Assembly: GCA_036268215.1 (NCBI GenBank) | Contig: DATAUO010000093.1 | Location: forward strand, 245 to 64,244 | Length of the DNA: 64,000 nucleotides | From: Steroidobacteraceae bacterium | GTDB lineage: Bacteria > Pseudomonadota > Gammaproteobacteria > Steroidobacterales > Steroidobacteraceae | Direction of reading: 5' to 3' | In this document: piece by piece, positions 1 through 34,815 of the stretch | Layout of the letters: every line of letters begins with the position of its first letter | Position numbering within the stretch: the stretch's first letter is position 1 | Made by a program: the position numbers and the translations under genes | Notes under the pieces: generated by a model | What the model saw: only the letters and a program-made list of their open reading frames with translations | Databases searched by the model: none | What the model was told of the DNA's origin: nothing

Positions 1-220
1 CGCCCCGCCCGTCGGTCGCGGCGGAGATCAGCGGCATGAACAGTCGGCACTCGCGGATGCGCTGCCGGATGGTCTGGTCCCAGGCGTCGCCGCCGCGCAG
101 CTCGCTCTTGTCGAACCACACTTCGATGGCGGCAGCCCTCAACGCCTCGCAAATGCGTTGGGCCGGCTCCGCATCCTCGGAGGCATAGCTCAGGAACACG
201 GCGCGCGATGTCTCCGTCAT
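1..220 (-). CDS. TIR domain-containing protein, N-terminal fragment (gene runs off the window start)
   Basis: Reverse translation from ATG at 218-220 gives MTETSRAVFLSYASEDAEPAQRICEALRAAAIEVWFDKSELRGGDAWDQTIRQRIRECRLFMPLIS. This is about three quarters identical by eye to the N-terminus of the 9422-11497 TIR protein. The FLSYA..D and WFD..L..G motifs are typical of bacterial TIR domains. Confidence 0.8.
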   Translation of the reverse strand, partial: MTETSRAVFLSYASEDAEPAQRICEALRAAAIEVWFDKSELRGGDAWDQTIRQRIRECRLFMPLISAATDGRG

Positions 221-301
221 CGAACTCATGTTCCCGGTGGCATCAGTCGAGGGCCCCTCCCTATTCACAACTATACGCGCGTAAATCAGCCAGCATGGCG
301 G

Positions 302-15377: not shown

Positions 15378-15474
15378 TCGGGTGATGCAGGGAAGCAACG
15401 GAAGAATCTCGCAGGGGTTGCGGCCTCGAGCGGGAGATGTCGGTTCGTCCATGGGGTGTAATCGGAAGGATGAC

Positions 15475-17004
15475 ATGTCGGATCGAAGCGCTTTGACCCG
15501 CCGGGGGTTCGTGACCGGCGCGTCCGCGTTCATGGCCGGTGCGTGCGCTTGGGCGGGATCCCCGGCTGCCGCTGCCGCCGGCTCCGACGTCCCGGCGACG
15601 GACCTGTCCGCGGCGGACGCGGTGGACCGCATGCGCCGCGGCGAGCTCAGCTCGGAGGCCTATGCGAAGGCGCTGCTCGACCGCTGTGCCTCCTTGAAAG
15701 CGCTGAACGCCTTCATCACCCTGGAGCCCGACCGCGTGCTGAGCGATGCCCGCGCGGCCGATCGCTTGCGCGCGAAGGGGGCGAAGCTCGGCCCGCTGCA
15801 CGGGCTGCCGATTCCGGTCAAGGACAGCCTCAACACCCGCGACTACCCGACCACGGTGGGGACGCCGGCGCTGCGCAAGTTCCGGCCCGCCGAGGATGCG
15901 CCGCTGGTCGCGCAGCTGAAGAGCGCGGGCGCCCTCGTGCTCGGCAAGACCAACCTGCACGAGCTGGCGTACGGCTGGACCAGCAACAACCATGCCTTCG
16001 GCGCCGTCCACAATCCTTACGATCCGAGCCGGATTCCCGGGGGAAGCAGCGGCGGCACCGCGGCCGCGGTAGCGGCGCACATGGCCCCGCTCGGCGTCGC
16101 GGCCGATACCGAGGGCTCGATCCGCGTCCCGGCGGCGCTCTGCGGACTGGTGGGGTTTCGGCCGACGACCGGGCGCTATTCGCAGGAGGGCCTCGCTCCG
16201 ATCACGCCGGTGTTCGATGAGGCGGGCCCGCACGCGCGCCGCATGGGCGACATCGAATTGTTCGACTCGGTGGTGACGGGCGAGCATGGCCCGCTCGCCG
16301 TGCCGAAGCTCGAGACGATCCGGCTCGCGGTCTATCGCGGCTACTATTACCAGGGGCTGGATCCCGAGGTGGCGCGGGTCACCGACGCCGCGCTGGCCAG
16401 GCTCAAGAGCGCGGGCGTGACGATCGTCGAGACCGAGATCCCGGAGCTGGCCGACCTCATCGCCCGCATCACGGGTCCCGTCCAGTACCACGACACCGAG
16501 CCGACGCTGCGGGCGTACCTTGCCAAGTACCGAGCCGGGGTCACCTTCGAGCAACTCGTGGCCTCGGCCAGCGACGACATCCGCGCCACCTTCGCCCAAT
16601 ACGTGCTGCCGGGCGGGCGCGACGTGGTGAGCGATGCCGCTTACAGGACAGCGGTCGATCAGGATCTGCCCCATCTGCGCGCCGTGCTGCGCGAGACCTT
16701 TGCGCGCACCCGGACGAGCGCGCTCGTGCTCCCGACCACCATGACGACGGCGCCCAGGATCGGCGATGAGGGCCTGCTGTCCTTCGGCGGCCGCAAGGTC
16801 GCCTTCGACGTCGCGATGTCGCGCAACATCGACCCGGGCAGCACGGCCGGGCTGCCGGGACTGGTCATGCCGGTCGGGCTCGCCGCGAACGGCCTGCCCG
16901 TGTCGCTCGAATTCGATGGCCCCGCGGGATCCGACCGAGCGCTGCTCGGGCTCGGCACCGCGCTCGAGCGTGTGCTGGGGACAGAGCCCCCGCCGCGCAT
17001 CTGA
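15475..17004 (+). CDS. Amidase-signature family amidase with Tat signal (periplasmic)
   Basis: The start is at ATG 15475 with GGAAGGA upstream. The twin-arginine leader is 'SALTRRGFVTGASAFMAGACAWA'. The amidase signature is 'GGSSGGTAAAVAAHMAPLGVAADTEGSIRVPAALCGLVGFRPT'. Confidence 0.9.
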   Translation: MSDRSALTRRGFVTGASAFMAGACAWAGSPAAAAAGSDVPATDLSAADAVDRMRRGELSSEAYAKALLDRCASLKALNAFITLEPDRVLSDARAADRLRAKGAKLGPLHGLPIPVKDSLNTRDYPTTVGTPALRKFRPAEDAPLVAQLKSAGALVLGKTNLHELAYGWTSNNHAFGAVHNPYDPSRIPGGSSGGTAAAVAAHMAPLGVAADTEGSIRVPAALCGLVGFRPTTGRYSQEGLAPITPVFDEAGPHARRMGDIELFDSVVTGEHGPLAVPKLETIRLAVYRGYYYQGLDPEVARVTDAALARLKSAGVTIVETEIPELADLIARITGPVQYHDTEPTLRAYLAKYRAGVTFEQLVASASDDIRATFAQYVLPGGRDVVSDAAYRTAVDQDLPHLRAVLRETFARTRTSALVLPTTMTTAPRIGDEGLLSFGGRKVAFDVAMSRNIDPGSTAGLPGLVMPVGLAANGLPVSLEFDGPAGSDRALLGLGTALERVLGTEPPPRI

Positions 17005-17031: not shown

Positions 17032-19692
17032 ATGTCATCTAGGCTGACGTACGCAATCGCCTGCATCTTGGCCGGGACGTCGGGTTCCACGGCCGCGGCC
17101 GCCGCGGGCGCCGACACGAGCTCTAGCGCCAGCGCCGCCTCGGAGTCCCTGGGGGAGGTCGTGGTGACCGCGCAGCGGCGCTCGGAGAACATCCAGGACG
17201 TCCCCATCTCGATCCAAGCATTCACCGAGCAGGCGCTGCAGCAGCTCAACATCTCGACGTTCGACGACTACATCAAGTTCCTCCCCAACGTCACGAGCGC
17301 GAGCAACGGGCCCGGGCAGAACGAAGTATTCATGCGAGGCCTGTCCGCCGGATCGCAGGCGAGCCAGGCGAGCGCAATCACGGCGGTGCTGCCGAATGTC
17401 GCGATCTATCTCGACAACCAGTCGGGTCAGATGCCGAATCGCAATCTGGACATCTACGCAGCGGACCTCAACCGTATCGAGGTGCTGGAGGGACCGCAGG
17501 GCACTCTGTTCGGCGCCGGTGCCCAGGCGGGCGTGATCCGCTACATCACCAACGAGCCGAAGCTCGACAAGACCGAGGGCTACGTCAAGGCCGGCTATGG
17601 CGTCACCGCCGGCGGCGATCCCAACACGGACATGCAGGCGGTGATCAACCTGCCGCTGATCGCGGAGCACATGGCGGTGCGCGCCGTCGTTTACAGCGAT
17701 CGCCGCGGCGGCTACATCAACAACGTGCCGGACACCTTCGCGCGCAAGAACACCGACATCGGCATCCACTACGCCAACTATCCGGCGGTGAACGGCCAGT
17801 GTCCGGATGGGCAGCCGAACAACGGGTATTGCGTGCCGCCGGGCAGCCCCACCTTGAGCAACAATGCCCTGGTCGGCAGGGCGATCAACCCGGTCACCTA
17901 TCAGGGAACCCGGATCGAGCTGTTGTACAAGTTCAACGACGACTGGGACATCCTGCTCAGCCAGTCGTATCAGAACATGGAAGCCGACGGCGTGTTCTTC
18001 CAGCAACCCTTGTCCTCGAGCGGGTCGCCGCTGAAGCCCCTCGAGGTCACCCTGTTCAACCCGGCCTACGACCAGGACAAGTTCGAGAGCACCGCCTGGA
18101 CCGTCGACGGCAAGATCGGTCCCTTGAAGATGGTCTATACCGGCGGCTACCTCGACCGGCAGGTCAATCAAACCTCCGACTACACCAACTACGTTCGCGG
18201 CGTGTACGCGGACTACTACCAGTGCTACGGGCCGGGCTCGGGCGGAGATGCCCATCTACCGTCCAAGTGCTTCTCGGCCAACGCCTTCTGGCGGGAGCAG
18301 GAGCGCAACCTGCACCAGCAGCACGAGTTCCGCCTGAGCACGCCGGACGACTGGCGCATCCGCGGCATCGCCGGCGCGTACTGGGAGGACAACAAGCTCT
18401 ATGACGTGACGAGCTGGCTCTACAAGGGCTTGCCGGCCTGCACCGCCACGGCCAACGTCGGCTGCATCACGGACGTCGGCACCTTGCCGGGAACGACGGT
18501 GCAGTACCCGGGAATCCAGACCGACGACACCACGTTCTTCCAGGATGCGCACCGCGAGACCAAGCAGACCGCGTTCTTCCTCTCCGGCGACTTCGACATC
18601 ATCCCGAAGGTGCTGACCTTCACGGCCGGCACGCGCTACTTCAAGTTCGACAACAAGTTCGTGGGCAGCGTGTCGGAGAGCTTCGGCTGCTTCCAGGGAG
18701 GCGCGCCGCCCTGCAACAATTATCCGGGGTTTGCGTTCAATCTCGACGCGCAGGGCCTGCGCTCCTCGGAGTCCGGGGTCAAGAGCCGCGCCAACCTGAC
18801 TTGGCATGTCATGCCGGACGTGATGGTCTACTACACGTTCTCGCAGGGCTTCCGGCCGGGCGGATTCAACGGCAACAGCACCACCTCGCACATTCCGGGT
18901 CCGGACGGCGCCGAGCAGTACTACATTCCGCGGACGTACTCCTCGGACAAGCTCACCAACAACGAGATCGGCTGGAAGACCGAGTTCTTCGATCACCACC
19001 TGCAGTGGAACGGCGCGATCTACCGCGAGAACTGGGACAACGTGCAGATCGAGTTCTTCGATCCCGGTCTGATCGGCAACCTGTACGTCAACACCAACGG
19101 GCAGAATTTCCTCATCAAGGGAATCGAGACCTCGTTGATCGGCCGGGTGACCGACGGTCTCACCCTGCAGGGCTCCGCGTCTTGGAACCAGAGCCGGCAG
19201 ACGAACTCACCTTCGCTGATCGACAACAACCCGCTGAGCGTGAACTACGGCAAGCCGATCACCGAGAACTGCTTCACCACGCCTTGCCAGCCCGTGGGCA
19301 ATCCCTTCGGTCCCGTCGGCTCTCCGAGCGCGGACGCGCCGCCGATCCAGTTCTCCCTGCGGGGGCGCTACGACTGGACCATCGGCAGCTACAGCCCGTT
19401 CCTGCAGGCATCGGCGCATCACACCGGGCATTCGTTCACGCAGGCCGGCTCGAACCCGATGTTCGTCATCGGCAACCAGATCAACACCTCGCGCGGGCGG
19501 TTCGAGGTGCCGGCGTACTCGACGTTCGATGCCTCGGGCGGCGTGACCAAGGATGCCTGGACGGTGATGATCTACGGCCAGAATCTCGCGAACTCGAATG
19601 CGAGCACGTTCATCAGCACGGATCAGTTCATCATTGCGCAGACGCCCTTGCGGCCGCGGGTGATCGGGGCGTCGTTCAGCTACTCGTTCTAG
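17032..19692 (+). CDS. TonB-dependent receptor (paralogue 2)
   Basis: 886 aa, roughly 70-75% identical by eye to the 3867-6500 receptor. For example, 'LQQLNISTFDDYIKFLPNVTSA.NGPGQ.EVFMRGLSAGSQASQ' is shared. It ends in an aromatic residue (..ASFSYSF). Confidence 0.95.
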   Translation: MSSRLTYAIACILAGTSGSTAAAAAGADTSSSASAASESLGEVVVTAQRRSENIQDVPISIQAFTEQALQQLNISTFDDYIKFLPNVTSASNGPGQNEVFMRGLSAGSQASQASAITAVLPNVAIYLDNQSGQMPNRNLDIYAADLNRIEVLEGPQGTLFGAGAQAGVIRYITNEPKLDKTEGYVKAGYGVTAGGDPNTDMQAVINLPLIAEHMAVRAVVYSDRRGGYINNVPDTFARKNTDIGIHYANYPAVNGQCPDGQPNNGYCVPPGSPTLSNNALVGRAINPVTYQGTRIELLYKFNDDWDILLSQSYQNMEADGVFFQQPLSSSGSPLKPLEVTLFNPAYDQDKFESTAWTVDGKIGPLKMVYTGGYLDRQVNQTSDYTNYVRGVYADYYQCYGPGSGGDAHLPSKCFSANAFWREQERNLHQQHEFRLSTPDDWRIRGIAGAYWEDNKLYDVTSWLYKGLPACTATANVGCITDVGTLPGTTVQYPGIQTDDTTFFQDAHRETKQTAFFLSGDFDIIPKVLTFTAGTRYFKFDNKFVGSVSESFGCFQGGAPPCNNYPGFAFNLDAQGLRSSESGVKSRANLTWHVMPDVMVYYTFSQGFRPGGFNGNSTTSHIPGPDGAEQYYIPRTYSSDKLTNNEIGWKTEFFDHHLQWNGAIYRENWDNVQIEFFDPGLIGNLYVNTNGQNFLIKGIETSLIGRVTDGLTLQGSASWNQSRQTNSPSLIDNNPLSVNYGKPITENCFTTPCQPVGNPFGPVGSPSADAPPIQFSLRGRYDWTIGSYSPFLQASAHHTGHSFTQAGSNPMFVIGNQINTSRGRFEVPAYSTFDASGGVTKDAWTVMIYGQNLANSNASTFISTDQFIIAQTPLRPRVIGASFSYSF

Positions 19693-19702: not shown

Positions 19703-20224
19703 TCAGGCCGGGGCGCCTGATCCGCGCCAGCGCCGCTGTTGCTCCTCCGACAGGTCGTAGCTGGACAGGAACGCGGTGAGCCGCTCGCGCTCGGCCGCGC
19801 CGTCGCCGTCCGAGCGGATGAAGTGCCGGGGCGGCAGCGCGACGCCTCGGTGCCGGAGCAGAGGGGCGAGCCGGCGCCAGTGGAGCGCGTCGCCGTGCTC
19901 CCCGGCGTCGCGTCCGCCGGCTCCTCGCATCCCTACCGCGACCACGGCATAGCCGTGATGCGCGTACTCCGCCACCTGGTCCGCGATCACGGCGAGCAAC
20001 AGGCTGTGCTTTCCCGGCGGCGGGAGCTGCAGTAGGCCGTAGCCGCATTCCTCCAGCACGCGCAGCACGTCGAGGGAGCCCGGCTGACCTTCCGCGGGAT
20101 CGGGCGCGGGCGTTCGAACGGGCGCCGGCGTTGGGCCGGCCGATGCGGTGCGCGCGTCCGCGGAGGCATTCGTCAGTGCTTCGGGCAGCAGCGCGATACG
20201 CCAGCCGCGTGCGTCGGCGCTCAC
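19703..20224 (-). CDS. Hypothetical protein, degenerate Cys-less paralogue of the adjacent TudS/DUF523-like protein
   Basis: GTG 20222-20224 is preceded by AGGAAGGGG (7-nt spacer). 'LRVLEECGYGLLQLPPPGKHS' parallels 'VEALRQRGYQLLQLPCPELAF' of the upstream gene, but the Cys positions are replaced. The start and reality of this gene are only moderately supported. Confidence 0.5.
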   Translation of the reverse strand: MSADARGWRIALLPEALTNASADARTASAGPTPAPVRTPAPDPAEGQPGSLDVLRVLEECGYGLLQLPPPGKHSLLLAVIADQVAEYAHHGYAVVAVGMRGAGGRDAGEHGDALHWRRLAPLLRHRGVALPPRHFIRSDGDGAAERERLTAFLSSYDLSEEQQRRWRGSGAPA

Positions 20225-20261
20225 GTTCCCGCCCCTTCCTCGCGTGACGGGTGACGAGCCT

Positions 20262-20882
20262 TCATGCTGGCCGATCGTCGTTGCGCGAGCCGGCGGCAGT
20301 CTCGCGGGCGTCGAGGAATTCCTCCAGGTCGCGGCGCGAGCCGGCCTCGTCGAACCGCCCCATGTCGAGCGCCCAGCCGGTGGCGGGCACGGCGGGGAGT
20401 CCGCGACGGGCGAGCTCGGCCTCGAGCTCCTCGATCCAAATGCCACGCTGGGGCACGATCTGCCAGTCGTCGTTTGGGCGATTGGGCCGGCCGCCCCAGT
20501 CGGGCTGCGTGGAGGTGAAGCGCACGCCGGTGGAGGGGCTGCCGTCGAGCCCGATGAGGATCACCTCGTCGCCGCGGCGAAGATGCTGCTCGATCAGCGG
20601 CGCGATCGCCTGCGCCAGGCGGCGGCAATGCGTGCGATACGCGGGCGTGTCGTACTGCTCGTACACGGCCCACCAGCGACGCGCACCGGCAAAGGCGAGC
20701 TCGGGACAGGGGAGTTGCAGCAGCTGATAGCCGCGCTGGCGCAGCGCCTCGACCACGGGGCTCACCACACCGCGATAACGCGCGCCCTCGCAGACCTTGG
20801 CGTTCTGGTTCAGCAGGCAATTCGCGACCAGCGCCACCTTTCGAGGCGCGGCGCTCGCATCGTCAGGCAGCCCAGGTGGCAC
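20262..20882 (-). CDS. DUF523/TudS-related protein (putative Fe-S desulfidase-like)
   Basis: GTG 20880-20882 is preceded by GGAGG (6-nt spacer). 'VALVANCLLNQNAKVCEG....YQLLQLPCPELAFAG' matches the Cys pattern (C..N.N / C / CPE) I associate with DUF523/TudS-related proteins. Confidence 0.7.
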   Translation of the reverse strand: MPPGLPDDASAAPRKVALVANCLLNQNAKVCEGARYRGVVSPVVEALRQRGYQLLQLPCPELAFAGARRWWAVYEQYDTPAYRTHCRRLAQAIAPLIEQHLRRGDEVILIGLDGSPSTGVRFTSTQPDWGGRPNRPNDDWQIVPQRGIWIEELEAELARRGLPAVPATGWALDMGRFDEAGSRRDLEEFLDARETAAGSRNDDRPA

Positions 20883-21071
20883 TATCGACCTCCACAACCG
20901 CTTCAGCCGTCGCGTACAGGTTGCCGTCCGCGCTGCCGAAGTACACGGTCGCTCCGTCGACCGCGGGCGAGGACAGCACGGCGCCGACGCTCATCATCTT
21001 CCACACGCCGAGGATGAGATCGTCGTAGAAGAAATCGGTGAATGTCGCCTGGTAGTTCCCGGCGCGATGCC

Positions 21072-22907
21072 TCAGTGGCCTTGCGCCTTCTTCTTCGGCG
21101 CGGATGACGCGGCCGCCGGCTGGGTCGGCTCGTTCAGGGGAAAGAAATTCCATGCGGGATTGTCCTTCAGGAACTTCAGGGTGATCAAGCCCGCGGCGCC
21201 GGGCGGCTGCGGCGGCGCATTGGGGTCGCTCTGCAGCGGCATGACCTTGCGGTAGGCCGTCCACGCGGCGGTCGGCGCGGGGCCGAACTCGCGCGAGGAG
21301 TCCTGGGCGTGGCGCACGTCCAGCCAGCGCGTGCCGGTGATGATGTCGGTCGCCAGAAGGCGGAACGTGTCGTCGACCGCGGTCTGTGCGCGCACCGCCT
21401 TCAAGAGCGACTGCGCCTCGAGCTCTTCGACGCCGGAGCTGCCGCCGTACCCCTCGGGCGGCACGGGGGTGATCTGGGCCTGGATGTGCTGCCAGGTCTC
21501 GTGATTGCCGAAGGTGCCCGCGAAGAACAGGTTGCCGCCCTGCTCGCGCAGGATCTTCTGCGTGCCCTCGCCGGTGAAGAACTCGCTGCCGAAGCGCTCG
21601 GCGCGCAGCATGATGGCGATGTCCATGTTGGCGAGGGCGATGGTGAAGGCCTCGAGGTCGTTCGACAGGGGATACGGATCCCAGTTCGCATCGGAAAAGA
21701 TGAAGCCGTGCTTGCCGTTCGAGTTCTTGCCGCCCTTCACGTAGTACTTCTGCATCTCGGGCGTCGCCAGGTCCCAGGCGTCCTGGGGCGACAGCCCGGC
21801 GCGGATCGCGGGGTTGTGGTCGGACGAGTTGAGCTGCGTCACCACGTCGTCGCGCAGCATCGCCCACATCTGCCACGCCGAGGCCGTGCGGATCGAGGAA
21901 GCCCGCAGGGATTCGGGGTCCTGGATGATGCGGCCCTTGTCGTCGCCGAAGAGGTAGCTGCCCTTGATCATCTCCTTGACGCGATTGGCATCCCAGTTCA
22001 GCCACTTGAACGGCCGGTCGGTCTGGACCAGGTAGCTCAACGGGGTGACCGAGCTGTTCATGGCGTTCAAGTCGATGGCATAGATGAGGTCGGCCCAGGC
22101 GAGCGCCTGCTTGCCGTCGGCGACCGCGAAGGCGGCGCGCGCCGTCGCGTAGGCATCGCTCGAGGTGAGCGCATTGTCGTCGGCGGCGAAGGGCTGCAGC
22201 GGCGCCAGTCCGGCGGCCTTGAGCGCCTCGGCGGCCGGCATGCGCGTTCCGTTGTAGTACGCCTCGCCGACGCCGACCATGGTGGCGCCGATGTTGTTGA
22301 GCACGGACAGATCGCCTTCGCCGACCGTGCCCCGCGACTGCATCACCGGCGTGACGCGCTTGTTGAGGAGATCGAGCAGCATCTGCGCGAGAGCCGGACT
22401 CGGGGCGTTGTAAGTCATGGCGTTGGCGCGCGCGACCATCACGGCGCGCACCAGACCCTCGTCGTTGATCTCGGGACCTTCCATGGGGTTGGCGGCGCCG
22501 CGCTTGAAGGAGGCCAGCATCTTTTTCTCGAGCAGCGCCTTGTTCCCGGGAGACAGCGGGTCGCCCTCGAACTGCTTCACCTCGCGTCCTGCGCCGGCCC
22601 CGCGCGTGAACCAGTAGACCGACACGCCTTCCGCCGGGGCCTCGAGGAGGAGCCCGTAGTTGTCGACCTCACGCTGCCTGGCCTCTGGGCTCAGCTCGAC
22701 CTTGGCGCCGCCGCGCGCGACCTCGACGAGCTGGTCGATGGTGAAATCGCGGCCGGTCAGCGTCACGGTCCTGCCGCTCAGCGCCGGCTCGATGGCGTGG
22801 TAGCCGAGCGTATCTTGAGCGCGCGCGCCGAGCGCGAACAGAACGGCGCCTCCAATCGCGAGGGTGATTGCGCCGGCGCGGCAGCGATGTCCCGAATGAG
22901 CGTTCAT
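21072..22907 (-). CDS. Secreted aromatic-amino-acid-lyase-fold (HAL/PAL family) protein lacking the MIO triad, paralogue 1
   Basis: ATG 22905-22907 has AGAGGAA upstream. The leader is 'AITLAIGGAVLFALGARA'. Family motifs are 'QLVEVARGGAKVEL', 'VRAVMVARANAM', 'RVTPVMQSRGTVGEGDLSVL', 'IIQDPESLRAS' and 'SSDHNP'. GEGD replaces G-A-S-G-D. Confidence 0.85.
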   Translation of the reverse strand: MNAHSGHRCRAGAITLAIGGAVLFALGARAQDTLGYHAIEPALSGRTVTLTGRDFTIDQLVEVARGGAKVELSPEARQREVDNYGLLLEAPAEGVSVYWFTRGAGAGREVKQFEGDPLSPGNKALLEKKMLASFKRGAANPMEGPEINDEGLVRAVMVARANAMTYNAPSPALAQMLLDLLNKRVTPVMQSRGTVGEGDLSVLNNIGATMVGVGEAYYNGTRMPAAEALKAAGLAPLQPFAADDNALTSSDAYATARAAFAVADGKQALAWADLIYAIDLNAMNSSVTPLSYLVQTDRPFKWLNWDANRVKEMIKGSYLFGDDKGRIIQDPESLRASSIRTASAWQMWAMLRDDVVTQLNSSDHNPAIRAGLSPQDAWDLATPEMQKYYVKGGKNSNGKHGFIFSDANWDPYPLSNDLEAFTIALANMDIAIMLRAERFGSEFFTGEGTQKILREQGGNLFFAGTFGNHETWQHIQAQITPVPPEGYGGSSGVEELEAQSLLKAVRAQTAVDDTFRLLATDIITGTRWLDVRHAQDSSREFGPAPTAAWTAYRKVMPLQSDPNAPPQPPGAAGLITLKFLKDNPAWNFFPLNEPTQPAAASSAPKKKAQGH

Positions 22908-22930
22908 ACCTGTTCCTCTGAGTAACCTTT

Positions 22931-24787
22931 TCACGGGCTGGTGGTGGCGGCGTCGATGTCCTTGGCGAGCGGTGCATAGAATTCAGCCGCGGGATGCTCG
23001 AGCATGAAGCCGAGCACGATCTCTCCGGCGGGGCGGAGCGGCCGCTCCTCGGGCTTTTGCCGGAACGGCACTGCGCGGCGGAATTCGGTCCAGACGGCGG
23101 TGGGTGCGGCGCCGAAAGCCCGGTCCGGGACCTGCGCATGGCGCACGTCGAGCCAGAACGTCGCGGTCAGGAGATCCTCGCCGAGCAGCCGCACGGTGTC
23201 GTCGACGATCTGCCGCGCGCGCACGGTCTTCAGCACCGTCTCCGCCTGCAGCTCCTCGACGGTGTTGCTGATGGCGTTGCCCTCGACGCTCTGCAGGTGC
23301 GCGAGCCCCTGGATGTCCTGCCAGATCGCGGTCGGGTTGTAGCCGTCGACATCCGATTGAACGCTGTCCGCGAGCTCGGCCGCGCCAATCACGTCCTTCG
23401 GCGAGATGACGGTGAAGAACGTGCTCGAGAAGCGATAGATCCGCTGCACCACCGCGACGTCCATGTTGGCGAGCGCGTTGGTGAGGGCTTCGATCTCGTT
23501 GGCCATGGGGTACGGGTCCCAGTTGGCGTTCGACAGGATGAAGCCGTGCTGGCCGTGGCTCTCCGGGCCGCCTTTCACGTAGTACTTGCGCAGCTGCGGC
23601 GTGGCGAGCTCCCAGGAATCCCCGGGCCCGGCGCCGACCTCCACCCCGGGATTGTGATCGGAGGAGTTGAGCTGGATGCGGAGCGTGTCGCGCAGCGTCG
23701 CCCATGCCTTCCACGCCGAGCCTTGACGGCTGTACGAGGCGCGCTGGCTCTCGGGGTCCTGGATGATGCGCTTGGGATCGTCGTCGAACAGGTAGCTGCC
23801 CTTGACCATGTCGAGAACCCGGGCGGCGACGCGGTTCGAGTACTCGAGCGGCCGGCTCGATTGCACCGGCGTCGACAGCGGCGTCACGCTGCTGTTCAGG
23901 GCCTCGAGGTCGAGCGAGAGCGCAAGGTCGGCCCAATTCAGGGCGAGCTTGGCATCGTGGACGAGCAGGGCGGCCTGCCCTGCCGAGAACGCATTGGTGC
24001 TGGTGAGCGCGGAAGGATAGATGGCATCGGCCGGCCGCAGCGGCTTCAAGCCGGCGGCGGCGAGCGCTTGCGCGGCGCTCATGCGCTTTCCCTGGTAGTA
24101 CGCCTCGCCGGCACCGCCCATGGTGCCGAGGACGTTGCCCATCGCGGCGAGATCCGCCTCGCCGAGCGAGCCGCGCGACTGCACCACCGGCGTCACGCGC
24201 CGGTTGAGCAGATCGATCAGGACCTGCGACAGCCCCGGGCTCGCCGCCTCGGAGATCATGGTGTTCGCACGCACCGCGAGCAGTGCGCGCACGATCTCCT
24301 CGTCCGCCACTTCGGGACCGATGCCTTGTCTCGGTCCGCTCAGGAACGCCTTGGCCGCCTTGGCGGAGAGCAACGCTTCGTTCTCGGGAGAGAGCGGATC
24401 GCCGGAGAACAGCGGGATCTCGCGGCCGGCGCCGGGCGCGCGATTGAAGCCGTAGATGGCCATGCCTTCGGCGGCGCCTTCCAGGAGCAGCCCGTACGCG
24501 TCCGCTTGCCGGCGGCGCGCGTCGTCGCTCAAGGCGACCTTGGCGCCGTAGCGCGCGACCGCGACCACCTGGTCAGGGGTCAGGTCGCGGCCGGTGAGCA
24601 CGACGGTCTCGGCGCTGCGCGAGGCGACGATGGGGTGGTAGCCGCGCGGCTCGGACGCGGCGCCGGCGCTCGAGTCGGACGCGGCGGCCGATTTGACCGC
24701 AGCGCCGGCGGGCGACCCGAGGGCCAAGCCCGCGATCAGGACGCCGGCCAGGATTGCGAGCGCGCGACCCCGGCACCCGCGCCGCAT
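22931..24787 (-). CDS. Secreted aromatic-amino-acid-lyase-fold protein lacking the MIO triad, paralogue 2
   Basis: ATG 24785-24787. The leader is 'RALAILAGVLIAGLALGSPAGA'. Family motifs are 'QVVAVARYGAKVAL', 'VRALLAVRANTM', 'RVTPVVQSRGSLGEADLAAM', 'IIQDPESQRAS' and 'SSDHNP'. Confidence 0.85.
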   Translation of the reverse strand: MRRGCRGRALAILAGVLIAGLALGSPAGAAVKSAAASDSSAGAASEPRGYHPIVASRSAETVVLTGRDLTPDQVVAVARYGAKVALSDDARRRQADAYGLLLEGAAEGMAIYGFNRAPGAGREIPLFSGDPLSPENEALLSAKAAKAFLSGPRQGIGPEVADEEIVRALLAVRANTMISEAASPGLSQVLIDLLNRRVTPVVQSRGSLGEADLAAMGNVLGTMGGAGEAYYQGKRMSAAQALAAAGLKPLRPADAIYPSALTSTNAFSAGQAALLVHDAKLALNWADLALSLDLEALNSSVTPLSTPVQSSRPLEYSNRVAARVLDMVKGSYLFDDDPKRIIQDPESQRASYSRQGSAWKAWATLRDTLRIQLNSSDHNPGVEVGAGPGDSWELATPQLRKYYVKGGPESHGQHGFILSNANWDPYPMANEIEALTNALANMDVAVVQRIYRFSSTFFTVISPKDVIGAAELADSVQSDVDGYNPTAIWQDIQGLAHLQSVEGNAISNTVEELQAETVLKTVRARQIVDDTVRLLGEDLLTATFWLDVRHAQVPDRAFGAAPTAVWTEFRRAVPFRQKPEERPLRPAGEIVLGFMLEHPAAEFYAPLAKDIDAATTSP

Positions 24788-24788
24788 G

Positions 24789-26588
24789 TCAGGGCACTCC
24801 GGCCGGCGGCGCCGGATCCCCTTGCGGGTAGAAGGTTTCCGCGTGCGTCCCCCTCAGGAACTCGGCCGCCACCATGGGCCGAATCTGCGCCGGGCCGTCG
24901 GCCGAGGGCATGAAGGGCACGACCTTGCGGAACGCGGCGAGCGCCGCGGTCGGCCCGTCGCCGAAGGCGCGCGCGGCATCCTGCTTCTTGCGCACGTCCA
25001 TCCAGAACGTGGCGTTCAGCATGTCATGACCCAGAAGATCGAACGTGGTGCCGACCGCCTGACGCGCGCGATAGGCCTTGATGCGGGTCTGAGCCTGCAG
25101 ATCCTCGACGGTGAGGTCGATGGCGGCGCCCGAGGGGGCGACCGGGTTCGTGAGGCTCTGCATCTCCTGCTGCAGATCGACCGGAGTGTATCCGCCGCCG
25201 CCGGCGAGATAGAGCATGAATCCGCTTCCGGGCGGCAGATTCAGGACCTTGACCGCGTCCGTCTGGGTGAAGAACGGGCTGGTGAAGCGATCGATGCGCA
25301 GCGACACCGCGACGTCCATGTTGGCGAGGGCGATGACGAAGTTCTCGAGCTTGTTCGCCATCGGGAACGGATCCCAATTGGCGTTGGAGACGATGTAGCC
25401 GTGCTTGCCGTTGCTCTCCTTACCGCCCTTGACGTAGTACTTCATCATCTGGGGCGAGGCGAGGTCCCAGCCGTCCTGCGGCGAGAGATCCGTGCGCACG
25501 GCCGGGTTGTGGTCCGAAGAATTCATCTGCGTCACGACGGCGTCGCGCAGCGCACCCCACTCCTGCCACGCGGAGCCCTCGCGGATGGACGAGGCGCGCA
25601 GCGACTCGGGGTCCTGGATGATCCGGTGCGGGTCGTCGCCGAAGAGGTAGCTGCCCTTCAAGAGCTCGCGCACCCGCGCCGCGTCCCAGTTGAGCCACTG
25701 GAACGGCCGCTCGCGCTGCACCAGCAGGGTCAACGGAGTGATGCTGGAATTCATGCCGTCCAGGTCCATGGCGTAGATCAGGTCCGCCCAGTCGAGCGCG
25801 CGCCGGCCGTCGGCCACGGCCAGCCCGGCGATGCCGGTGGCATAGGCATCGCTCGAGGTGAGGGCATTGGTGTCGGCCGCGAACGGCTGGATGGGCTTCA
25901 ACCCCGCCTTGGCCAGGGCGTCGGACGCCCTCATGCGCGTGCCCTCGAAATACGCATCGCCGGCTCCGACCATGGTCGCGCCGACGTTGCTGAGCTCGGC
26001 GAGATCGCCTTCGCCGAGCGTGCCGCGGGATAGCACCACCGGCGTGACGCGACGGTTGAGGAGGTTGGTGAGCATCTCGGCGAGCTGGGGGCTCGGGGCG
26101 TTCCAGGTCATGGCATTGGCCCGCACCGCCATCATGGCGCGCACGATCTCCTCGTCGGAGACCTCGGGACCGTAGCCGAAGACGGCGCCGAGCTTGAACT
26201 CCATGAGCTGGGATTTCTCGAGGTACTCCTTGTTCTTCGGCGAGAGCGGGTCGCCCGAGAACAGCACCGTCTCGCGCTGGTCGCCGGCACCGCGGTTGAA
26301 CCAGTACACCGCGATGCCCTCGGCCGACGCCTCGAGCAGCAGGCCGTAGTTGTCGGCCTCGCGCTGCCTGGCCTCGGGGCTCAGCTGCACCTTCGCGCCG
26401 TACCGCGCGATGTCGACCAGCTGCTCGACGGTGAGATCCTTGCCGGTCAGCGTGATCACCTTGTCCGACATCGTCGCCTGGATGGGCGTGTACCCGGAGC
26501 CGGCCAGCGCGGAAGCGCCCGCGCAAAGACATCCCATCAGAATCCCGAGACGCCCAGCCGTCCGCCGTCCGATCGCCATGCCATTCAT
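24789..26588 (-). CDS. Secreted aromatic-amino-acid-lyase-fold protein lacking the MIO triad, paralogue 3
   Basis: ORF 24789-26657 was trimmed to ATG 26586-26588, with GGGGAG 6 nt upstream. The leader is 'GRLGILMGCLCAGASALA'. Family motifs are 'QLVDIARYGAKVQL', 'RVTPVVLSRGTLGEGDLAEL', 'IIQDPESLRAS' and 'SSDHNP'. The stop lies 1 nt from the start of paralogue 2. Confidence 0.85.
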   Translation of the reverse strand: MNGMAIGRRTAGRLGILMGCLCAGASALAGSGYTPIQATMSDKVITLTGKDLTVEQLVDIARYGAKVQLSPEARQREADNYGLLLEASAEGIAVYWFNRGAGDQRETVLFSGDPLSPKNKEYLEKSQLMEFKLGAVFGYGPEVSDEEIVRAMMAVRANAMTWNAPSPQLAEMLTNLLNRRVTPVVLSRGTLGEGDLAELSNVGATMVGAGDAYFEGTRMRASDALAKAGLKPIQPFAADTNALTSSDAYATGIAGLAVADGRRALDWADLIYAMDLDGMNSSITPLTLLVQRERPFQWLNWDAARVRELLKGSYLFGDDPHRIIQDPESLRASSIREGSAWQEWGALRDAVVTQMNSSDHNPAVRTDLSPQDGWDLASPQMMKYYVKGGKESNGKHGYIVSNANWDPFPMANKLENFVIALANMDVAVSLRIDRFTSPFFTQTDAVKVLNLPPGSGFMLYLAGGGGYTPVDLQQEMQSLTNPVAPSGAAIDLTVEDLQAQTRIKAYRARQAVGTTFDLLGHDMLNATFWMDVRKKQDAARAFGDGPTAALAAFRKVVPFMPSADGPAQIRPMVAAEFLRGTHAETFYPQGDPAPPAGVP

Positions 26589-26645
26589 TGTTGTCTCCCC
26601 AGTGTTGCCGCGGGAGGGTCCTTCCCCCGAAAGATCCGTGCCATC

Positions 26646-26674
26646 GGTATGCAACATTTTTAACTGGTATGCAA
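26646..26674 (-). promoter_or_regulatory. Direct repeat TTGCATACC x2 (20-bp register) in an AT-rich island upstream of the lyase-like operon
   Basis: On the minus strand the sequence reads TTTGCATACCagttaaaaatgTTGCATACCgaTGGCAC. It lies about 60-85 nt upstream of the 26588 start codon. This is the only AT-rich stretch in the 206-bp gap. Confidence 0.35.
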
Positions 26675-26794
26675 ATTACATTTTCGGACCCGGCCGGGGG
26701 CGGAGGGGCCGTTGCCGCCGCCCGAAGGGCCGGAATGCGCCGAATGAGCCGGTTTGCCCGGGCAGCCGCCCGAGAACCACGCCGGGCCGGTCGG

Positions 26795-28711
26795 TCACGT
26801 GCCGGCGCCGCCCGGATAGGAATCGATCACCGGCCCGAGCGCGCCTTTCAACGGGCCGAGCCAGGGCTCGTAGTGGCGCCATTGCTCCAGGCCCTCGCGA
26901 AAGATCGGCCGGCGCACCTGCCCGGAGCTCGCGCTGCGCACGGCGCGAGGATTCTGGTAGAAGCGCAGGCACGACTCCTCGAAAGGCAGCCCGCAGTAAT
27001 CGAGCAGCGCGCGGACTTCGCTCTCGGTGTCCTCCACCATCCGCTCGTAGATGACGCGATGAACCCGGCCGGGAGCGACCCGGTCGAAGTGCGCCATGAG
27101 CTCGACGTAGTCGCGGTAGTAACGGCCGATGTCCTCGAGGCCGTAGCTGAAGTGCTGGCCCAGCGCGAAATGCTGCTTGAAGCCGGAAAAGCAGCACGCC
27201 AGCGGATGGCGGCGCGCATCGACGATCTTGGCGCTGGGAAGCGCGAGCAGGATCAGGCCGAGATGCTGGAAGTTGTTCGGCATCTTGTCGATGAAGAACG
27301 GCGCCGCGCGCTTGCGGTGGATGCGCGTGCGCTCGAGGTATTCCTCGCCGAGGCGCCGCCACTCGGCGCCGGTCAAGGAGGCGAGCGCGCCCGGGTAATT
27401 CGTGCCCTCGCTCTCGTCGGACGCGGCCGCGACCCGGCGCGCCATCGCGATGATGTCCGGGATCTCGATGGTGCCCTCGACCTGCGAGTGGCTGGCCAGG
27501 ATCTGCTCGAGCAGCGTCGAGCCGGACCGCGGCAGGCCGACGATGAAGATCGGATCCGGCGCCGGACATCCCGCCTTCGACCGCGCGCGGATGAAATCCG
27601 CGCTGAAGAGCTGGTGCGAGCGGCCGAGTCTCGCGTGGTGCTCGTCCGCATCGTAGCGGATCTCGGCCCGGCGCAACCGGTTGCCCTCGGCGTAATGCTC
27701 GAAGGACTGCGCGAACCGCCCCTGATCCTCGAGCGCCTTGCCGAGCGCGAAATGAAAATGAAAGCGCTCGTGCGCCTCGAGCGTGTCGTTCCGAAGCGCC
27801 GCGAGCATGGCACCGGTCTCGTCCGCGGCGAAGCGGAAGGTCTTGAGATTGGCGAGGCTCCAGTAGCTCTCGCCGAGGCGCGGCTCGAGCTCGATGCTCC
27901 TGCGGTAGGCGGCTACCGCGTCCTGGTCGCGGCCGGAGGTCTTCAGCGCATGTCCGAAGCTCATCCAGATCCGCGCCTGGTTCGGATAGGCGTCCAGCAC
28001 CTCGCGATAGAGCTCGAGCGACGCGGCATATTCCCCGACGGCGCCGAGGATCGCCGCCTTGATGTTGCGCGCGCTGATCCGCCGCGGCTCGGCCGACAGG
28101 CAGCGGTCGATCTCGGCAAGCGCTTCGGCGTGCTTGTTCTCACGGTGCAGGACGAGGGCGAGATTCTGGCGCGCGGCAACGAAGTTCGGCGCGAGCCCGA
28201 CGCAGTGGCGCAGCAGCGCCTCGGCATCGCCGTAGCGGCGCAGCCGCGCGGCGAGCTCGGCCAGCATGCGCAACGCCGCCACGTCGTTGGGGTTCTCGCG
28301 CACCTTGGCCCGGAGCAAGGGCTCCGCCTCCGCGAGGCGGTTCTGGTAGAGCGCGGCGCCCGCGGCCCGCATGCGCGGATCATGGATCGAGTGCTTGACG
28401 TGCTCGGCATAGGCGCGGTCGGCGTCGGGCACGTTGCCCACGTCCGTGTACAGATCGCCGAGCGCGAGCCACGCCGGACCGAGATCCGGCTTAGCCGCGA
28501 CCGCGCGGCGCAGCGTCTCGATGGCCTCGCCGTTGCGTCCGAGCGCGCGCCGGGCGAGGGCGAGCAGGTACAGCGCCGCGGGCTGATCCGGCAGCTGCTC
28601 GAGGATGGCCTGGGCCTGCTCGGCCGCGAGCTCAGGCTGCGCGGCGAGGAGGCGCATGCCGTGCGCGAGCGCGGCATCGAGTGTACCCAGGGGATCTGCG
28701 GCTGGAGTCAT
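26795..28711 (-). CDS. TPR repeat-containing sulfotransferase family protein
   Basis: The N-terminal about 330 aa consist of TPR repeats. The C-terminal sulfotransferase domain has the PAPS 5'-phosphosulfate loop 'IFIVGLPRSGSTLLEQIL' and 'IVDARRHPLACCFS'. The start is ATG 28711 or GTG 28747. Confidence 0.85.
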   Translation of the reverse strand: MTPAADPLGTLDAALAHGMRLLAAQPELAAEQAQAILEQLPDQPAALYLLALARRALGRNGEAIETLRRAVAAKPDLGPAWLALGDLYTDVGNVPDADRAYAEHVKHSIHDPRMRAAGAALYQNRLAEAEPLLRAKVRENPNDVAALRMLAELAARLRRYGDAEALLRHCVGLAPNFVAARQNLALVLHRENKHAEALAEIDRCLSAEPRRISARNIKAAILGAVGEYAASLELYREVLDAYPNQARIWMSFGHALKTSGRDQDAVAAYRRSIELEPRLGESYWSLANLKTFRFAADETGAMLAALRNDTLEAHERFHFHFALGKALEDQGRFAQSFEHYAEGNRLRRAEIRYDADEHHARLGRSHQLFSADFIRARSKAGCPAPDPIFIVGLPRSGSTLLEQILASHSQVEGTIEIPDIIAMARRVAAASDESEGTNYPGALASLTGAEWRRLGEEYLERTRIHRKRAAPFFIDKMPNNFQHLGLILLALPSAKIVDARRHPLACCFSGFKQHFALGQHFSYGLEDIGRYYRDYVELMAHFDRVAPGRVHRVIYERMVEDTESEVRALLDYCGLPFEESCLRFYQNPRAVRSASSGQVRRPIFREGLEQWRHYEPWLGPLKGALGPVIDSYPGGAGT

Positions 28712-28777
28712 ACGGATCGGCAACCGGAGTCGTGCGCCGCCCGGCACCGGCGGGAAGTCGAGGCCGGGGCGTCGAGG

Positions 28778-30571
28778 TCAGTTTGCCACAACCGGCAGCA
28801 CGACGTGCGAGGGGTGACCTGCCTCGTGATAGATGCGGATCGTCGCCGCGCGGGCGTTCGCGGAACGGGTCTCGGACTCCCCGCTCTGCAGGTTGCGCGA
28901 GAAATAGGCAAAGAACTGCCCGGAGACCTGAACCCGGATGCGGTGGCCTTGCTTGAACAGGTTGCTGGTCACGGGGCCGGTGATGTCGATCCGGTAGATC
29001 TTTCCCGGCTCGAGCAACTGCCGGCCCTTGTCGATGTCACGGTAGCTCGCGCGCTCGAGCTCGCTGCCCGCGCTCATCTGGTTCCAGACCGCGCCGTCCG
29101 GCGCCACGTCGTAAAGGCGGACCCAGAGGTCGAGGTCCCGGCAATCGCAGCTCACGAAGATGTGCGAGTCGATGGCCCCCGTCACTTCGGTGTCCCTGGC
29201 AAGCGGCGCGGTCTCGAAGGTGAGCAGGTCCCGGCGCGCGCCGAGCTCGCGGTAATCGTGCGCGCCGAGCTCCTCGGCGTGGCGGTCCGTCACCGGGTGC
29301 AGGGGATCGGACACGAACGCGCTGGACCCGCCCGCCTCGGGGGCCGATTCGCTCAACGAACCGGGGCGGCCCGGCGCGGCATCGCCGAGATAGAAGCGCG
29401 CGGCCCTCGCCGCGGAAGGCGGCCATGACGCGCCCTCGCGCCAGGCGTCGGCGCCCATGACGTAGTAGCGCACCGGGGGCTTTCGGTCGACGCCGTTGTC
29501 GATGCCGCGCAGATAATGATCCATCCAATCGAGCACGGTCTTGTCGTAGTCGATCGCCGCGGCCGCGGGGAACGTGCGCTCGCCGGCCTTGGGGGTCTCT
29601 GTGGACTTCACCCCGTGAATCCACGGACCGACCAGGAGGGCCGTCCTGCGCGGCTGGCCGGAGCGCGCTTTCAAGAGACCTTCGAAGTTCGTGACGGCGC
29701 CTTCGGGGCCGTAATGCTCGTCGTACCATCCGGAAAGATTGAGCACCGCGGCGCGGGTGCGGCGGTACTTGCCGCGCAGATCCGACCAATTCCACCACGC
29801 ATCGTCCGGGGGGTGGCGCAGCCACTCGTAGTAGTAGGGCGCGACATCGCGAAGCTCGGGCAAGGCGTCGAGGGGCAGCACGCCCTCCATCTCGGACGCG
29901 CTGCGCTGCCAGGCCGCGACGGCGTCGTCATAGGTGCGCGGCCCGGGCAGATTCAGCTTCACCCGCACGTCCGGCGCGATGTTGTCCCAGATCCACTCGA
30001 TCCACGACAGGTCGAACGCGCCGCTTGCATAGAAGAACGTGCGATGCGAGGAGAAGGTCATGGCGGGGACCATGGCCTCGAGGTGCGGCGGGCTTTCCAC
30101 CGCCGCAAGCCATTGCACCGCGCCGGGATACGACAATCCGAAGGTGCCGACCTTGCCGTTCGACCAGGGCTGGCGCGCCGCCCACTCGATGGTGTCGTAG
30201 CCGTCGCGGCCTTCGTTCACATAGGGAACGAAAACCCCGGCGGAGCCGTAGCGCCCGCGCACGTCCTGCACCACGACGGCATAGCCCCGGGCGCGCGCGG
30301 CTTCGAAGGTGGTGTATTCCTGAAGCGCGTTCTTCTCGCCATAGGGCGTGCGGTACACGAGCACCGGGAAGGGGCCGTTGCCGGCCGGCAGCAAGAGGTC
30401 CGCGCGCAGAGTGAGGCTGTCGCGCATGGGGATCGCGGCCTGCATCTCGGCGCCCGCAGCGGCGGTGGCGGTGGCGGCGTTGGCGTTGGCGTTGGCGTCG
30501 GCTTCGGCTTCGGCGGCCCAAGCCGCCGGCGTCGCGACGAATAAACCAATCAGCAGCACGCACCGCCTCAT
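28778..30571 (-). CDS. CocE/NonD family hydrolase (S15 X-Pro dipeptidyl-peptidase-like), secreted
   Basis: ORF 28778-30727 was trimmed to ATG 30569-30571, with GGAG upstream. The leader is 'MRRCVLLIGLFVATPAAWA'. Family motifs are 'PVLVYRTPYG', 'VVVQDVRGRYGSAG' and the nucleophile motif 'GTFGLSYPGAVQW'. Confidence 0.9.
   Translation of the reverse strand: MRRCVLLIGLFVATPAAWAAEAEADANANANAATATAAAGAEMQAAIPMRDSLTLRADLLLPAGNGPFPVLVYRTPYGEKNALQEYTTFEAARARGYAVVVQDVRGRYGSAGVFVPYVNEGRDGYDTIEWAARQPWSNGKVGTFGLSYPGAVQWLAAVESPPHLEAMVPAMTFSSHRTFFYASGAFDLSWIEWIWDNIAPDVRVKLNLPGPRTYDDAVAAWQRSASEMEGVLPLDALPELRDVAPYYYEWLRHPPDDAWWNWSDLRGKYRRTRAAVLNLSGWYDEHYGPEGAVTNFEGLLKARSGQPRRTALLVGPWIHGVKSTETPKAGERTFPAAAAIDYDKTVLDWMDHYLRGIDNGVDRKPPVRYYVMGADAWREGASWPPSAARAARFYLGDAAPGRPGSLSESAPEAGGSSAFVSDPLHPVTDRHAEELGAHDYRELGARRDLLTFETAPLARDTEVTGAIDSHIFVSCDCRDLDLWVRLYDVAPDGAVWNQMSAGSELERASYRDIDKGRQLLEPGKIYRIDITGPVTSNLFKQGHRIRVQVSGQFFAYFSRNLQSGESETRSANARAATIRIYHEAGHPSHVVLPVVAN
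30461..30516. repeat. Compound hexanucleotide microsatellite (GGCGGT)2(GGCGTT)3(GGCGTC)(GGCTTC)2
   Basis: Read directly from the sequence. It encodes AAEAEADANANANAATATAAA just after the signal peptide of the CocE/NonD hydrolase. Confidence 0.85.
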
Positions 30572-34615: not shown

Positions 34616-34815
34616 CGCTCCCTCTCCCGCGCAGCGGCAATTCTCGAGATCAGTATGGCGGATGCCGCCGCCGTTCGCCAACGACGCGCCGCGCGACCGC
34701 TGCCACGTTCGACCCCTGTCCTCTGGATGGCACTCCGCGTGGGCCCGGCATATCATCTTCCCGCCGTAGCCTTCGTTGGAACCGCACGAACAAGATTAAT
34801 AAAGGAATATCAATC

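Follow-up and report, generated by a model that had tools for sequence, protein, structure and literature searches.

We have analyzed a cluster of eleven genes in a 64-kb stretch of DNA from a Steroidobacteraceae metagenome-assembled genome (MAG). The whole stretch is referred to as the window; its G+C content is about 68%, and all coordinates are positions within it (Table 1). The cluster includes three consecutive genes for exported proteins of the PF00221 lyase fold, a gene for a tetratricopeptide repeat (TPR) protein with a sulfotransferase domain, a CocE/NonD hydrolase gene, a pair of genes described as TudS-like and, on the other strand, genes for an amidase and a TonB-dependent receptor (TBDR), with a TetR regulator divergent from the amidase. 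Comparisons with related loci suggest that the locus is a mosaic of three units, namely a lyase core, a sulfotransferase/hydrolase module and the TudS pair.

The open reading frames that an earlier note on this DNA had placed here are all present, on the strands it gave. The intergenic gaps of 30, 206, 1, 23, 189 and 37 nt were also recovered using start codons supported by orthologues; the start of lyase 3 at 22907, for example, is backed by the orthologue in a related contig, L087. Pfam and NCBIfam searches bore out the family assignments with the exception of the second TudS-like gene. The 189-nt gap 3′ of lyase 3 has the length described, however, it is not empty and holds the remnant of a beta-propeller gene. 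Only 10 nt separate the stop codons of the TBDR gene and the convergent gene at 19703-20224. The prediction of six exported products is plausible on simple N-terminal criteria, and an N-terminal hydrophobic segment was found in 68 of 74 lyase, 3 of 114 sulfotransferase and 0 of 120 TudS-like homologues. No Rfam family matched in the window, and a scan for promoters and terminators gave no signal above shuffled expectation that marks operon boundaries.

Table 1. Features of the locus, with their positions in the window and the basis of their assignment.
Feature	Position	Strand	Remarks
CocE/NonD (S15) hydrolase, predicted exported	28778-30571	-	TIGR00976, Peptidase_S15 + PepX_C
TPR + Sulfotransfer_3 protein, predicted cytoplasmic	26795-28747	-	likely start 28711 (MTPAADPLG, as in orthologues)
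Lyase 1, predicted exported, PF00221 without MIO	24789-26588	-	open reading frame extends to 26657; ATG at 26588 gives MNGMAIGRR...
Lyase 2, predicted exported PF00221 paralogue	22931-24787	-	GEAD; 51% identity to lyase 1
Lyase 3, predicted exported PF00221 paralogue	21072-22907	-	GEGD; 59% identity to lyase 1; open reading frame extends to 22934
3′ remnant of PQQ/BamB-type beta-propeller gene	20903-21057	-	deletion scar, 155 nt
TudS-related CD3072-family protein, predicted cytoplasmic, putative Fe-S desulfidase	20262-20882	-	NF045597, PF27735
Partner of TudS-related gene, cysteine-less remote paralogue	19703-20224	-	without family-model match
TonB-dependent receptor	17032-19692	+	Plug + barrel domains; convergent on lyase strand
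Amidase, twin-arginine-type leader	15382-17004	+	PF01425; likely start 15475 (MSDRSALTRRGFV)
TetR regulator, BetI-type C-terminal domain	14489-15166	-	TetR_N + TetR_C_6; divergent from amidase

All three lyases match PF00221 (E 1.8e-81 to 1.7e-92, the latter for lyase 1) and they are mutually 51-59% identical. The earlier label of lyase-fold proteins is correct as far as the fold goes, but it missed both the absence of the Ala-Ser-Gly triad of the 4-methylideneimidazole-5-one (MIO) cofactor and a likeness to ergothionase. At the MIO position, lyases 1, 2 and 3 read GEGD, GEAD and GEGD, respectively. Their best sequence match in the PDB is Treponema denticola ergothionase (6s7j, E 4.8e-40), whose own GEGD aligns with GEGD here. 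The same structure was the top Foldseek match of an AlphaFold2 model of lyase 1 (E 2e-19, TMt 0.77), with histidine ammonia-lyase (HAL) and tyrosine aminomutase (TAM) close behind. Identity as MIO-dependent histidine or aromatic ammonia-lyases was rejected because the triad is missing, and the lyases score only 128-175 against the hutH model TIGR01225, for which the cutoff is 539. Over 2,600 homologues have been recorded; where the source gives a name, it is histidine or aromatic amino acid ammonia-lyase. Judged by sequence, this public naming does not fit a family that is missing the triad.

Residue conservation was counted across 103 members of the family, taken from related loci and aligned with ergothionase and one HAL. 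Every member has GE[GAS]D at the MIO position, and 103/103 also keep the Gln, Arg and Asn that bind the carboxylate (HAL Gln277, Arg283 and Asn313). The proton-abstracting Tyr (HAL Tyr53) is kept in 102/103 and the equivalent of HAL Glu414 in 94/103. At the position of HAL Tyr280, 102 of the 103 members have Glu, and at that of HAL Phe329 all have Trp. The three lyases have no Lys or His at the positions of ergothionase Lys384 and HAL His83, which are variable and lie in loops that are uncertainly aligned. Since this binding Lys and His are missing, we predict substrates other than ergothioneine or hercynine. Ergothioneine catabolism by ergothionase-like lyases together with a TudS-like desulfidase was considered and rejected on the same grounds, as well as because the TudS pair is not a conserved neighbor. 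The subfamily also has segments of its own. The N-terminus of lyase 1 resembles a signal peptide, and 3-5 residues past the predicted cleavage site there is a Y-x-P-I segment (window 26460-26500 in lyase 1, with equivalent positions in lyases 2 and 3) in which the Tyr is kept in 95/103 and the Ile in 96/103 members. This segment, which is predicted with good confidence in the structure model, is not present in ergothionase or HAL. A further subfamily-specific insertion contains KYYVKGG.

Lyase-anchored loci were collected from one genome per GTDB species, which gave 76 loci (L numbers identify these and the other loci and contigs compared here). Open reading frames were called by third-position G+C content (GC3) and clustered, and the window proteins were mapped by tblastn. 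Most of the loci are from Steroidobacteraceae MAGs, with a few from Caulobacteraceae and from Mesorhizobium, Inquilinus, Labrys and Novosphingobium, the last four being cultured carriers of the lyase. In the cultured alphaproteobacteria the lyase has varied neighbors, which gave no hint of the substrate. Lyases 1, 2 and 3 are encoded in this order in at least seven loci, namely L001-L004, L010 and L014, at 71-92% identity, and also L087, with the lyase 2 orthologue in the middle position in each. In eight loci a trimethylamine dehydrogenase-like protein of 730 residues is encoded near the lyases, adjoining the lyase genes in most of them (L005:7463-9655, with equivalents in L001, L002, L004, L008, L013, L017 and L020). 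It aligns over its full length (729 residues, 1408 bits) with the crystallized trimethylamine dehydrogenase of Methylophilus, 1djn. Given the distance between the hosts, this is unusually close to the Methylophilus enzyme and may reflect horizontal transfer. Beside the dehydrogenase gene are genes for electron-transfer-flavoprotein-like and Fe-S-protein-like products, a permease, and a DAO + FAO_M + GCV_T protein that resembles dimethylglycine or sarcosine dehydrogenase.

Single lyase paralogues (55-60% identical) were found in larger, conserved clusters for betaine, choline and sarcosine catabolism. These clusters encode choline-sulfatase (806 bits, cutoff 433), a BetA-like GMC oxidoreductase, SoxB- and SoxG-like proteins, a GbcA-like Rieske oxygenase, an MttB-family methyltransferase, a GbdR-like regulator, TauD and a FolD-like protein, the last assigned by eye. 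Those members of the PF00221 fold without MIO that have been characterized are trimethylammonia-lyases, some of them periplasmic (bioRxiv 10.1101/2025.08.13.670108, 10.64898/2026.04.22.720169). Based mainly on the fact that relatives of the lyases adjoin trimethylamine dehydrogenase and betaine-catabolic genes, we predict that the three proteins are probably periplasmic trimethylammonia-lyases for betaines. As a separate observation, six Steroidobacteraceae loci (L031, L033, L035, L049, L060 and L063) share a conserved cluster of 12-15 genes that includes a MIO-less lyase. It encodes a BetA-like oxidoreductase, an enolase-superfamily protein, a 3-hydroxyisobutyrate-dehydrogenase-like protein, a TonB receptor, a TPR-sulfotransferase, the lyase, a cytoplasmic PhnD-like binding protein, a fatty-acid-desaturase-like membrane protein, an MFS transporter, choline-sulfatase, FolD, and SoxG-like and dimethylglycine-dehydrogenase-like proteins. 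The PhnD-like/desaturase-like pair lies directly 3′ of a lyase in about 25 loci.

The link that the earlier note had drawn between the exported lyases and the TPR-sulfotransferase was also seen in other genomes. As controls for lyase loci of at least 8 kb we used TudS-anchored loci of the same bacterial family, and the sulfotransferase family was present within the fetched flanks of 36/66 lyase loci and 0/37 controls (Fisher p 8.6e-10). The usual arrangement is a receptor gene, one to three copies of the sulfotransferase gene and then a lyase gene, all co-directional. We counted 29 co-directional adjacencies from receptor to sulfotransferase and 15 from sulfotransferase to lyase. The TPR-sulfotransferase is a genuine recurrent partner of lyases and TonB receptors. 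It matches PF13469 (Sulfotransfer_3, E 2.3e-49), and P22, R23, S24, G25, T27 and R129 do not vary among 36 sequences, with S137 almost as constant; these residues cover the 5′-phosphosulfate loop PRSGST and the Arg and Ser of a downstream 3′-phosphate motif. A profile of the catalytic domain matched the tyrosylprotein sulfotransferases TPST1/2 first among PDB entries (E 2e-17), followed by the 'activating' sulfotransferases of CurM and OLS, and phmmer with the domain gave no match in the PDB. No signal peptide was present in 111 of 114 homologues. The same family (60-77% identity) also lies beside TonB receptors in loci without a lyase (L084, L086, L088 and L089), which carry genes for amidases, formamidase-like enzymes, amidohydrolases and peptidases.

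Homologues of the receptor at 17032-19692 (59-69% identity) are encoded directly upstream of a lyase or sulfotransferase in many loci. Enrichment of receptors near lyases was not significant relative to control loci. Since the controls hold receptors at equal frequency, we read the coupling from repeated, direct, co-directional adjacency rather than from enrichment, and on this basis a coupling of the receptor to the lyases and the sulfotransferase is suggested. The window holds three TonB receptors. The one at 3867-6500 (+) is 67% identical to that at 17032-19692; a second TetR gene with a BetI-type C-terminal domain, at 3031-3687 (-), is divergent from it, and a ParB-like gene (ParB_N + HTH_ParB, 6589-7551), an odd neighbor for a receptor, follows directly after it.

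The CocE/NonD protein scores 378.6 against TIGR00976 (cutoff 66.3), and its N-terminus, read by eye, ends ...AAWA-AE. The adjacency of its gene to the sulfotransferase gene downstream is conserved in L014, L084 and L087. L084 carries RpiR, CocE followed by the sulfotransferase, and a convergent amidase and receptor, with no lyases. The CocE/NonD and TPR-sulfotransferase genes with a convergent receptor-amidase pair are a separate hydrolase module, which also occurs without lyases. The amidase of the window matches PF01425 (E 5e-97) and has the leader motif T-R-R-G-F-V. A more specific name, indoleacetamide hydrolase, was rejected because the score against the equivalog model NF005688 was 525.8 with a cutoff of 532, and we assign the protein to the amidase-signature enzymes without a narrower name. 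The TetR gene and the unit of amidase followed by TBDR are common only to L014 and the window; the best NCBIfam match of the TetR protein is BetI, far under the cutoff.

Taken together, we lean, at slightly better than even confidence, toward a mosaic locus in which an exported, MIO-independent trimethylammonia-lyase core has a recurrent sulfotransferase partner and stands beside an independent TudS pair. In the mechanism we propose, a betaine would cross the outer membrane through the TonB-dependent receptor and meet the lyases in the periplasm, where the conserved Tyr would abstract a beta-proton and trimethylamine would be expelled by 1,2-elimination without MIO. Each lyase would act on an alpha-N,N,N-trimethyl amino acid and yield an alpha,beta-unsaturated acid plus trimethylamine. 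Both products would then enter the cell, and in relatives trimethylamine dehydrogenase would oxidize the trimethylamine. The three conserved paralogues may have three substrates or may form a hetero-oligomer (mixed tetramer). An amino-acid-derived substrate, which the earlier note had put forward, is plausible, and aromatic or other amino-acid betaines are our candidates, although here we are guessing. A lyase product or an exported protein may be what the sulfotransferase modifies, and the CocE/NonD hydrolase and the amidase may trim ester- or amide-linked precursors.

Several observations weigh against this reading. The AlphaFold model of the lyase is of moderate confidence (pLDDT 65.6, pTM 0.73), and the side-chain-binding positions, where the alignment is uncertain, are unlike those of all characterized trimethylammonia-lyases. 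Release of trimethylamine is what we infer from homology and gene neighborhood, and there is no trimethylamine dehydrogenase or other methylamine gene within the 64-kb window. It is not obvious where a sulfotransferase that consumes 3′-phosphoadenosine 5′-phosphosulfate (PAPS) would fit into catabolism. The TBDR clade of the window is as common in controls (20/37) as in lyase loci (39/66). Lastly, a TudS-like gene also lies 3′ of lyase 3 in a second contig, L087, so some functional link between the two is possible.

The lyases could instead eliminate a different leaving group, such as dimethylsulfonium, dimethylammonium or a CurM-type sulfate ester made by the neighboring sulfotransferase, or they could be non-catalytic binders. 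The unusual substrate-side residues are consistent with this, as are the position of the CurM and OLS activating sulfotransferases as second-best relatives of the sulfotransferase domain and the recurrence of choline-sulfatase and TauD in the clusters of lyase paralogues. Nevertheless, the lyases are exported and the sulfotransferase is cytoplasmic, so that a hand-over would need export of a sulfated intermediate. Adjacency to trimethylamine dehydrogenase and methyl-amine genes indicates trimethylamine, and the invariant catalytic residues argue against mere binding. We therefore consider this alternative unlikely.

The earlier note had treated the genes as one candidate envelope pathway. Spelled out for all eleven genes, the receptor would import an amide- or ester-linked, possibly sulfated aromatic compound, the CocE/NonD hydrolase and the amidase would cleave it in the periplasm, the lyases and TudS-like proteins would process the pieces, and TetR would regulate the system. 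In favor of this, the genes lie close together and most of them share one direction, export is predicted for six products, and CocE, sulfotransferase, amidase, receptor and lyase genes are again neighbors in L014 and L087, the latter with its TudS-like gene 3′ of lyase 3. The history of the locus was followed by aligning its DNA to that of L014, the closest relative in GTDB, whose proteins are 86-96% identical to those of the window, and by use of the gene calls of L087. Proteins of L087 are 98-100% identical to those of L014, and its fetched sequence stops at the start of its TudS-like gene. The gene order in both is PBP1B, RpiR, CocE followed by sulfotransferase, then a receptor-amidase pair that is a second and different one, and then lyases 1-2-3, which are followed by a PQQ-type propeller gene in L014 or by the TudS-like gene in L087. 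After the propeller gene, L014 has a convergent unit of receptor and amidase. Relative to these loci, the window is without RpiR and the second receptor-amidase pair, has only 155 nt of the propeller gene, and has the TudS pair at the junction. The remnant at 20903-21057 shows 88% DNA identity to the 3′ end of the intact L014 gene, which lies at about 15640-16932 and encodes PQQ_2 and Beta-prop_ACSF4 domains. The junction 3′ of lyase 3 thus varies between strains, and the contiguous co-directional layout of the window is derived, since it came about by deletions relative to close relatives.

The TudS-like genes have a distribution of their own. The product of 20262-20882 scores 123.5 against NF045597, the model for CD3072-family TudS-related proteins (cutoff 130). 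TudS/DUF523-type desulfidases bind a [4Fe-4S] cluster through three Cys ligands; by eye, the product of 20262-20882 keeps the Cys in ANCLLN and LPCPE and reads SPSTG at a third conserved motif. It is identical to a hypothetical protein on record from a Steroidobacteraceae MAG, and homologues that are 84-92% identical occur in other genomic contexts. Of the two genes described as TudS-like, this one is TudS-related with a score just under the model cutoff, and the product of 19703-20224 is only a remote, cysteine-less relative. It had no match among Pfam and NCBIfam models and no Cys at the TudS motif positions; aligned with the 20262-20882 product by hhalign, it gave a probability of 87.8% (E 3e-6), with the cysteines lost. 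The gene is nonetheless real, its product being about 70% identical to that of the gene 3′ of TudS-like genes in other Steroidobacteraceae. Among 80 metagenomic TudS-anchored loci, 76 have this partner after the TudS-like gene. A receptor of the window clade directly adjoins the TudS-like gene in about 8 of the 80, which suggests that the pair has a receptor link of its own; the pair was seen directly beside such a receptor (54-64% identity) in the soil metagenome contigs L137, L139, L150, L154, L156, L161 and L168. Elsewhere it adjoins aldo-keto reductase, YCII or polysaccharide deacetylase genes. The possibility that it is a mobile element was rejected, as there were no flanking repeats beyond chance level and no adjacent transposase, only a deletion scar and strain-level polymorphism. 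We read the two TudS-like genes as a unit of their own that a strain-level rearrangement brought to this position.

A search for the full gene set in other genomes, a check that the earlier note had proposed, showed that it is not conserved; co-occurrence is confined to one narrow lineage, whose genes are 86-95% identical to those of the window. The TudS pair is absent from 76/76 lyase-anchored loci, the closest relative L014 included, and in 80/80 TudS-anchored loci there is no lyase, sulfotransferase, CocE or amidase gene within 8 kb. Further, the CocE-sulfotransferase-amidase-receptor module of L084 occurs without lyases, the lyase trio is found elsewhere beside trimethylamine dehydrogenase and without CocE, amidase or TetR, and the contiguity seen here was made by deletions. 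A single pathway of eleven genes is not borne out, and we regard it as quite improbable. In line with the earlier note, which did not recognize the combination as a described pathway, the exact combination was not found in the searchable literature.

Very improbable, finally, is that the sulfotransferase is a protein-tyrosine sulfotransferase that modifies an exported neighbor before secretion, for example at the conserved Tyr near the lyase signal cleavage site: TPST1 and TPST2 are its closest solved relatives, it has an N-terminal TPR array of the kind that typically binds peptides or proteins, its gene is directly upstream of a lyase in many loci, and the family-specific Y-x-P-I segment (Tyr 95/103) is missing from ergothionase and HAL, however, the Tyr motif is equally kept where no sulfotransferase is nearby (44 loci versus 37), the residue preceding the Tyr is mostly non-acidic, and the same sulfotransferase family lies beside receptors and hydrolases without a lyase.

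Among known systems, the preferred trimethylammonia-lyase reading has its closest parallels in Shewanella, where Swoo_3913 is a periplasmic histidine-betaine lyase, SO_3057 an ergothionase and SO_3299 an N(pi)-methyl-histidine-betaine lyase (bioRxiv 10.1101/2025.08.13.670108, 10.64898/2026.04.22.720169). Similar to these enzymes, the window lyases have the PF00221 fold without the MIO triad, a predicted signal peptide, the Tyr base and the Gln, Arg and Asn that bind the carboxylate. In contrast, they are about 100 residues longer, carry the Y-x-P-I segment and the KYYVKGG insertion, do not keep the His and Lys/Asn/Gln specificity positions, and are encoded as three paralogues in one operon of a soil Steroidobacteraceae host. 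No flavocytochrome c/urocanate reductase was seen among the annotated recurrent neighbors, although no targeted PF00890 search was made; the neighbors here are TonB receptors, TPR-sulfotransferases, trimethylamine dehydrogenase and betaine-catabolic genes. T. denticola ergothionase is closest both by sequence and by fold and has the same GEGD at the MIO position, but it is cytoplasmic, with 497 residues, and the window lyases are without an equivalent of its Lys384. None of the thiourocanate-pathway genes of the ergothionase system was seen here.

The sulfotransferase resembles human TPST1/2, its best PDB profile matches, in having a Sulfotransfer_3 domain with a PRSGST PAPS loop. RaxST is a bacterial protein-tyrosine sulfotransferase. 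Unlike the TPSTs and RaxST, the protein studied here has a long N-terminal TPR fusion, is predicted to be cytoplasmic and is encoded beside TonB receptors and catabolic enzymes, and no gene for a RaxX-like precursor or a peptidase-exporter was noticed at the locus. TudS and RudS are thiouracil and 4-thiouridine desulfidases (PMC10611767, PMC11417400). The 20262-20882 product is like them in matching the TudS-related CD3072 model, just under its cutoff, and PF27735, and its desulfidase role is putative; it differs in being paired with a cysteine-less remote paralogue and in having no DUF1722 fusion. In Xanthomonas, Caulobacter and sphingomonads, catabolic loci centered on a TonB receptor also encode enzymes for degradation in the periplasm and a repressor of their own. 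TonB-receptor neighborhoods with a halogenase, SapC, a dioxygenase and sometimes a sulfotransferase have also been described (Iyer et al. 2010, PMC2938197). There too, modifying enzymes recur beside the receptor, and these neighborhoods are the nearest precedent for the sulfotransferase pairing. They differ from the loci studied here, which have a TPR-TPST-like sulfotransferase, MIO-less lyases, amidases and S15 hydrolases. No description of a pairing of TPR-sulfotransferase and TonB receptor was found in the searchable literature, nor was there anything relevant on lyases that act on hypaphorine or on tyrosine betaine.

As a pathway, the locus is more ordinary than the earlier note had thought; as an enzyme family, it is more specific and testable, and one association, that of the sulfotransferase, is unexplained. 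MIO-less trimethylammonia-lyase chemistry has been shown only recently, and only for histidine-derived betaines in anaerobes. If our reading is true, a large soil family would extend this chemistry to new substrates and add to the known sources of trimethylamine in aerobic soils, and a widespread mis-annotation as ammonia-lyase would be corrected. We can speculate further that Steroidobacteraceae possess a route for non-histidine betaines that runs from a TBDR to secreted MIO-less lyases and to trimethylamine in aerobic soils, with an obligatory TPST-like partner that would sulfate the lyase or receptor before export, or else the unsaturated-acid product; the lyase alone would also occur in some Alphaproteobacteria. 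We hold this wider proposal to be tentative and rather doubtful. If true, it would for the first time link a bacterial TPST-like enzyme, the obligatory partner, to the uptake of nutrients and not to a signalling peptide.

Several other genes of the window were also noted. A 691-residue protein with TIR_2 and TPR domains is encoded at 9422-11497 (-), and the gene at the window edge, 2-268 (-), has the same N-terminal VFLSYASEDA...AQ motif, which makes two TIR-domain proteins in the window. At 33575-34756 (-) there is a metallo-beta-lactamase + rhodanese fusion with a persulfide-dioxygenase-like architecture, which is syntenic with a gene near PBP1B in L087. N-terminal sequences at 59753-64000 (-) look, by eye only, like those of DNA ligase D and then Ku-like genes, a set for non-homologous end-joining.

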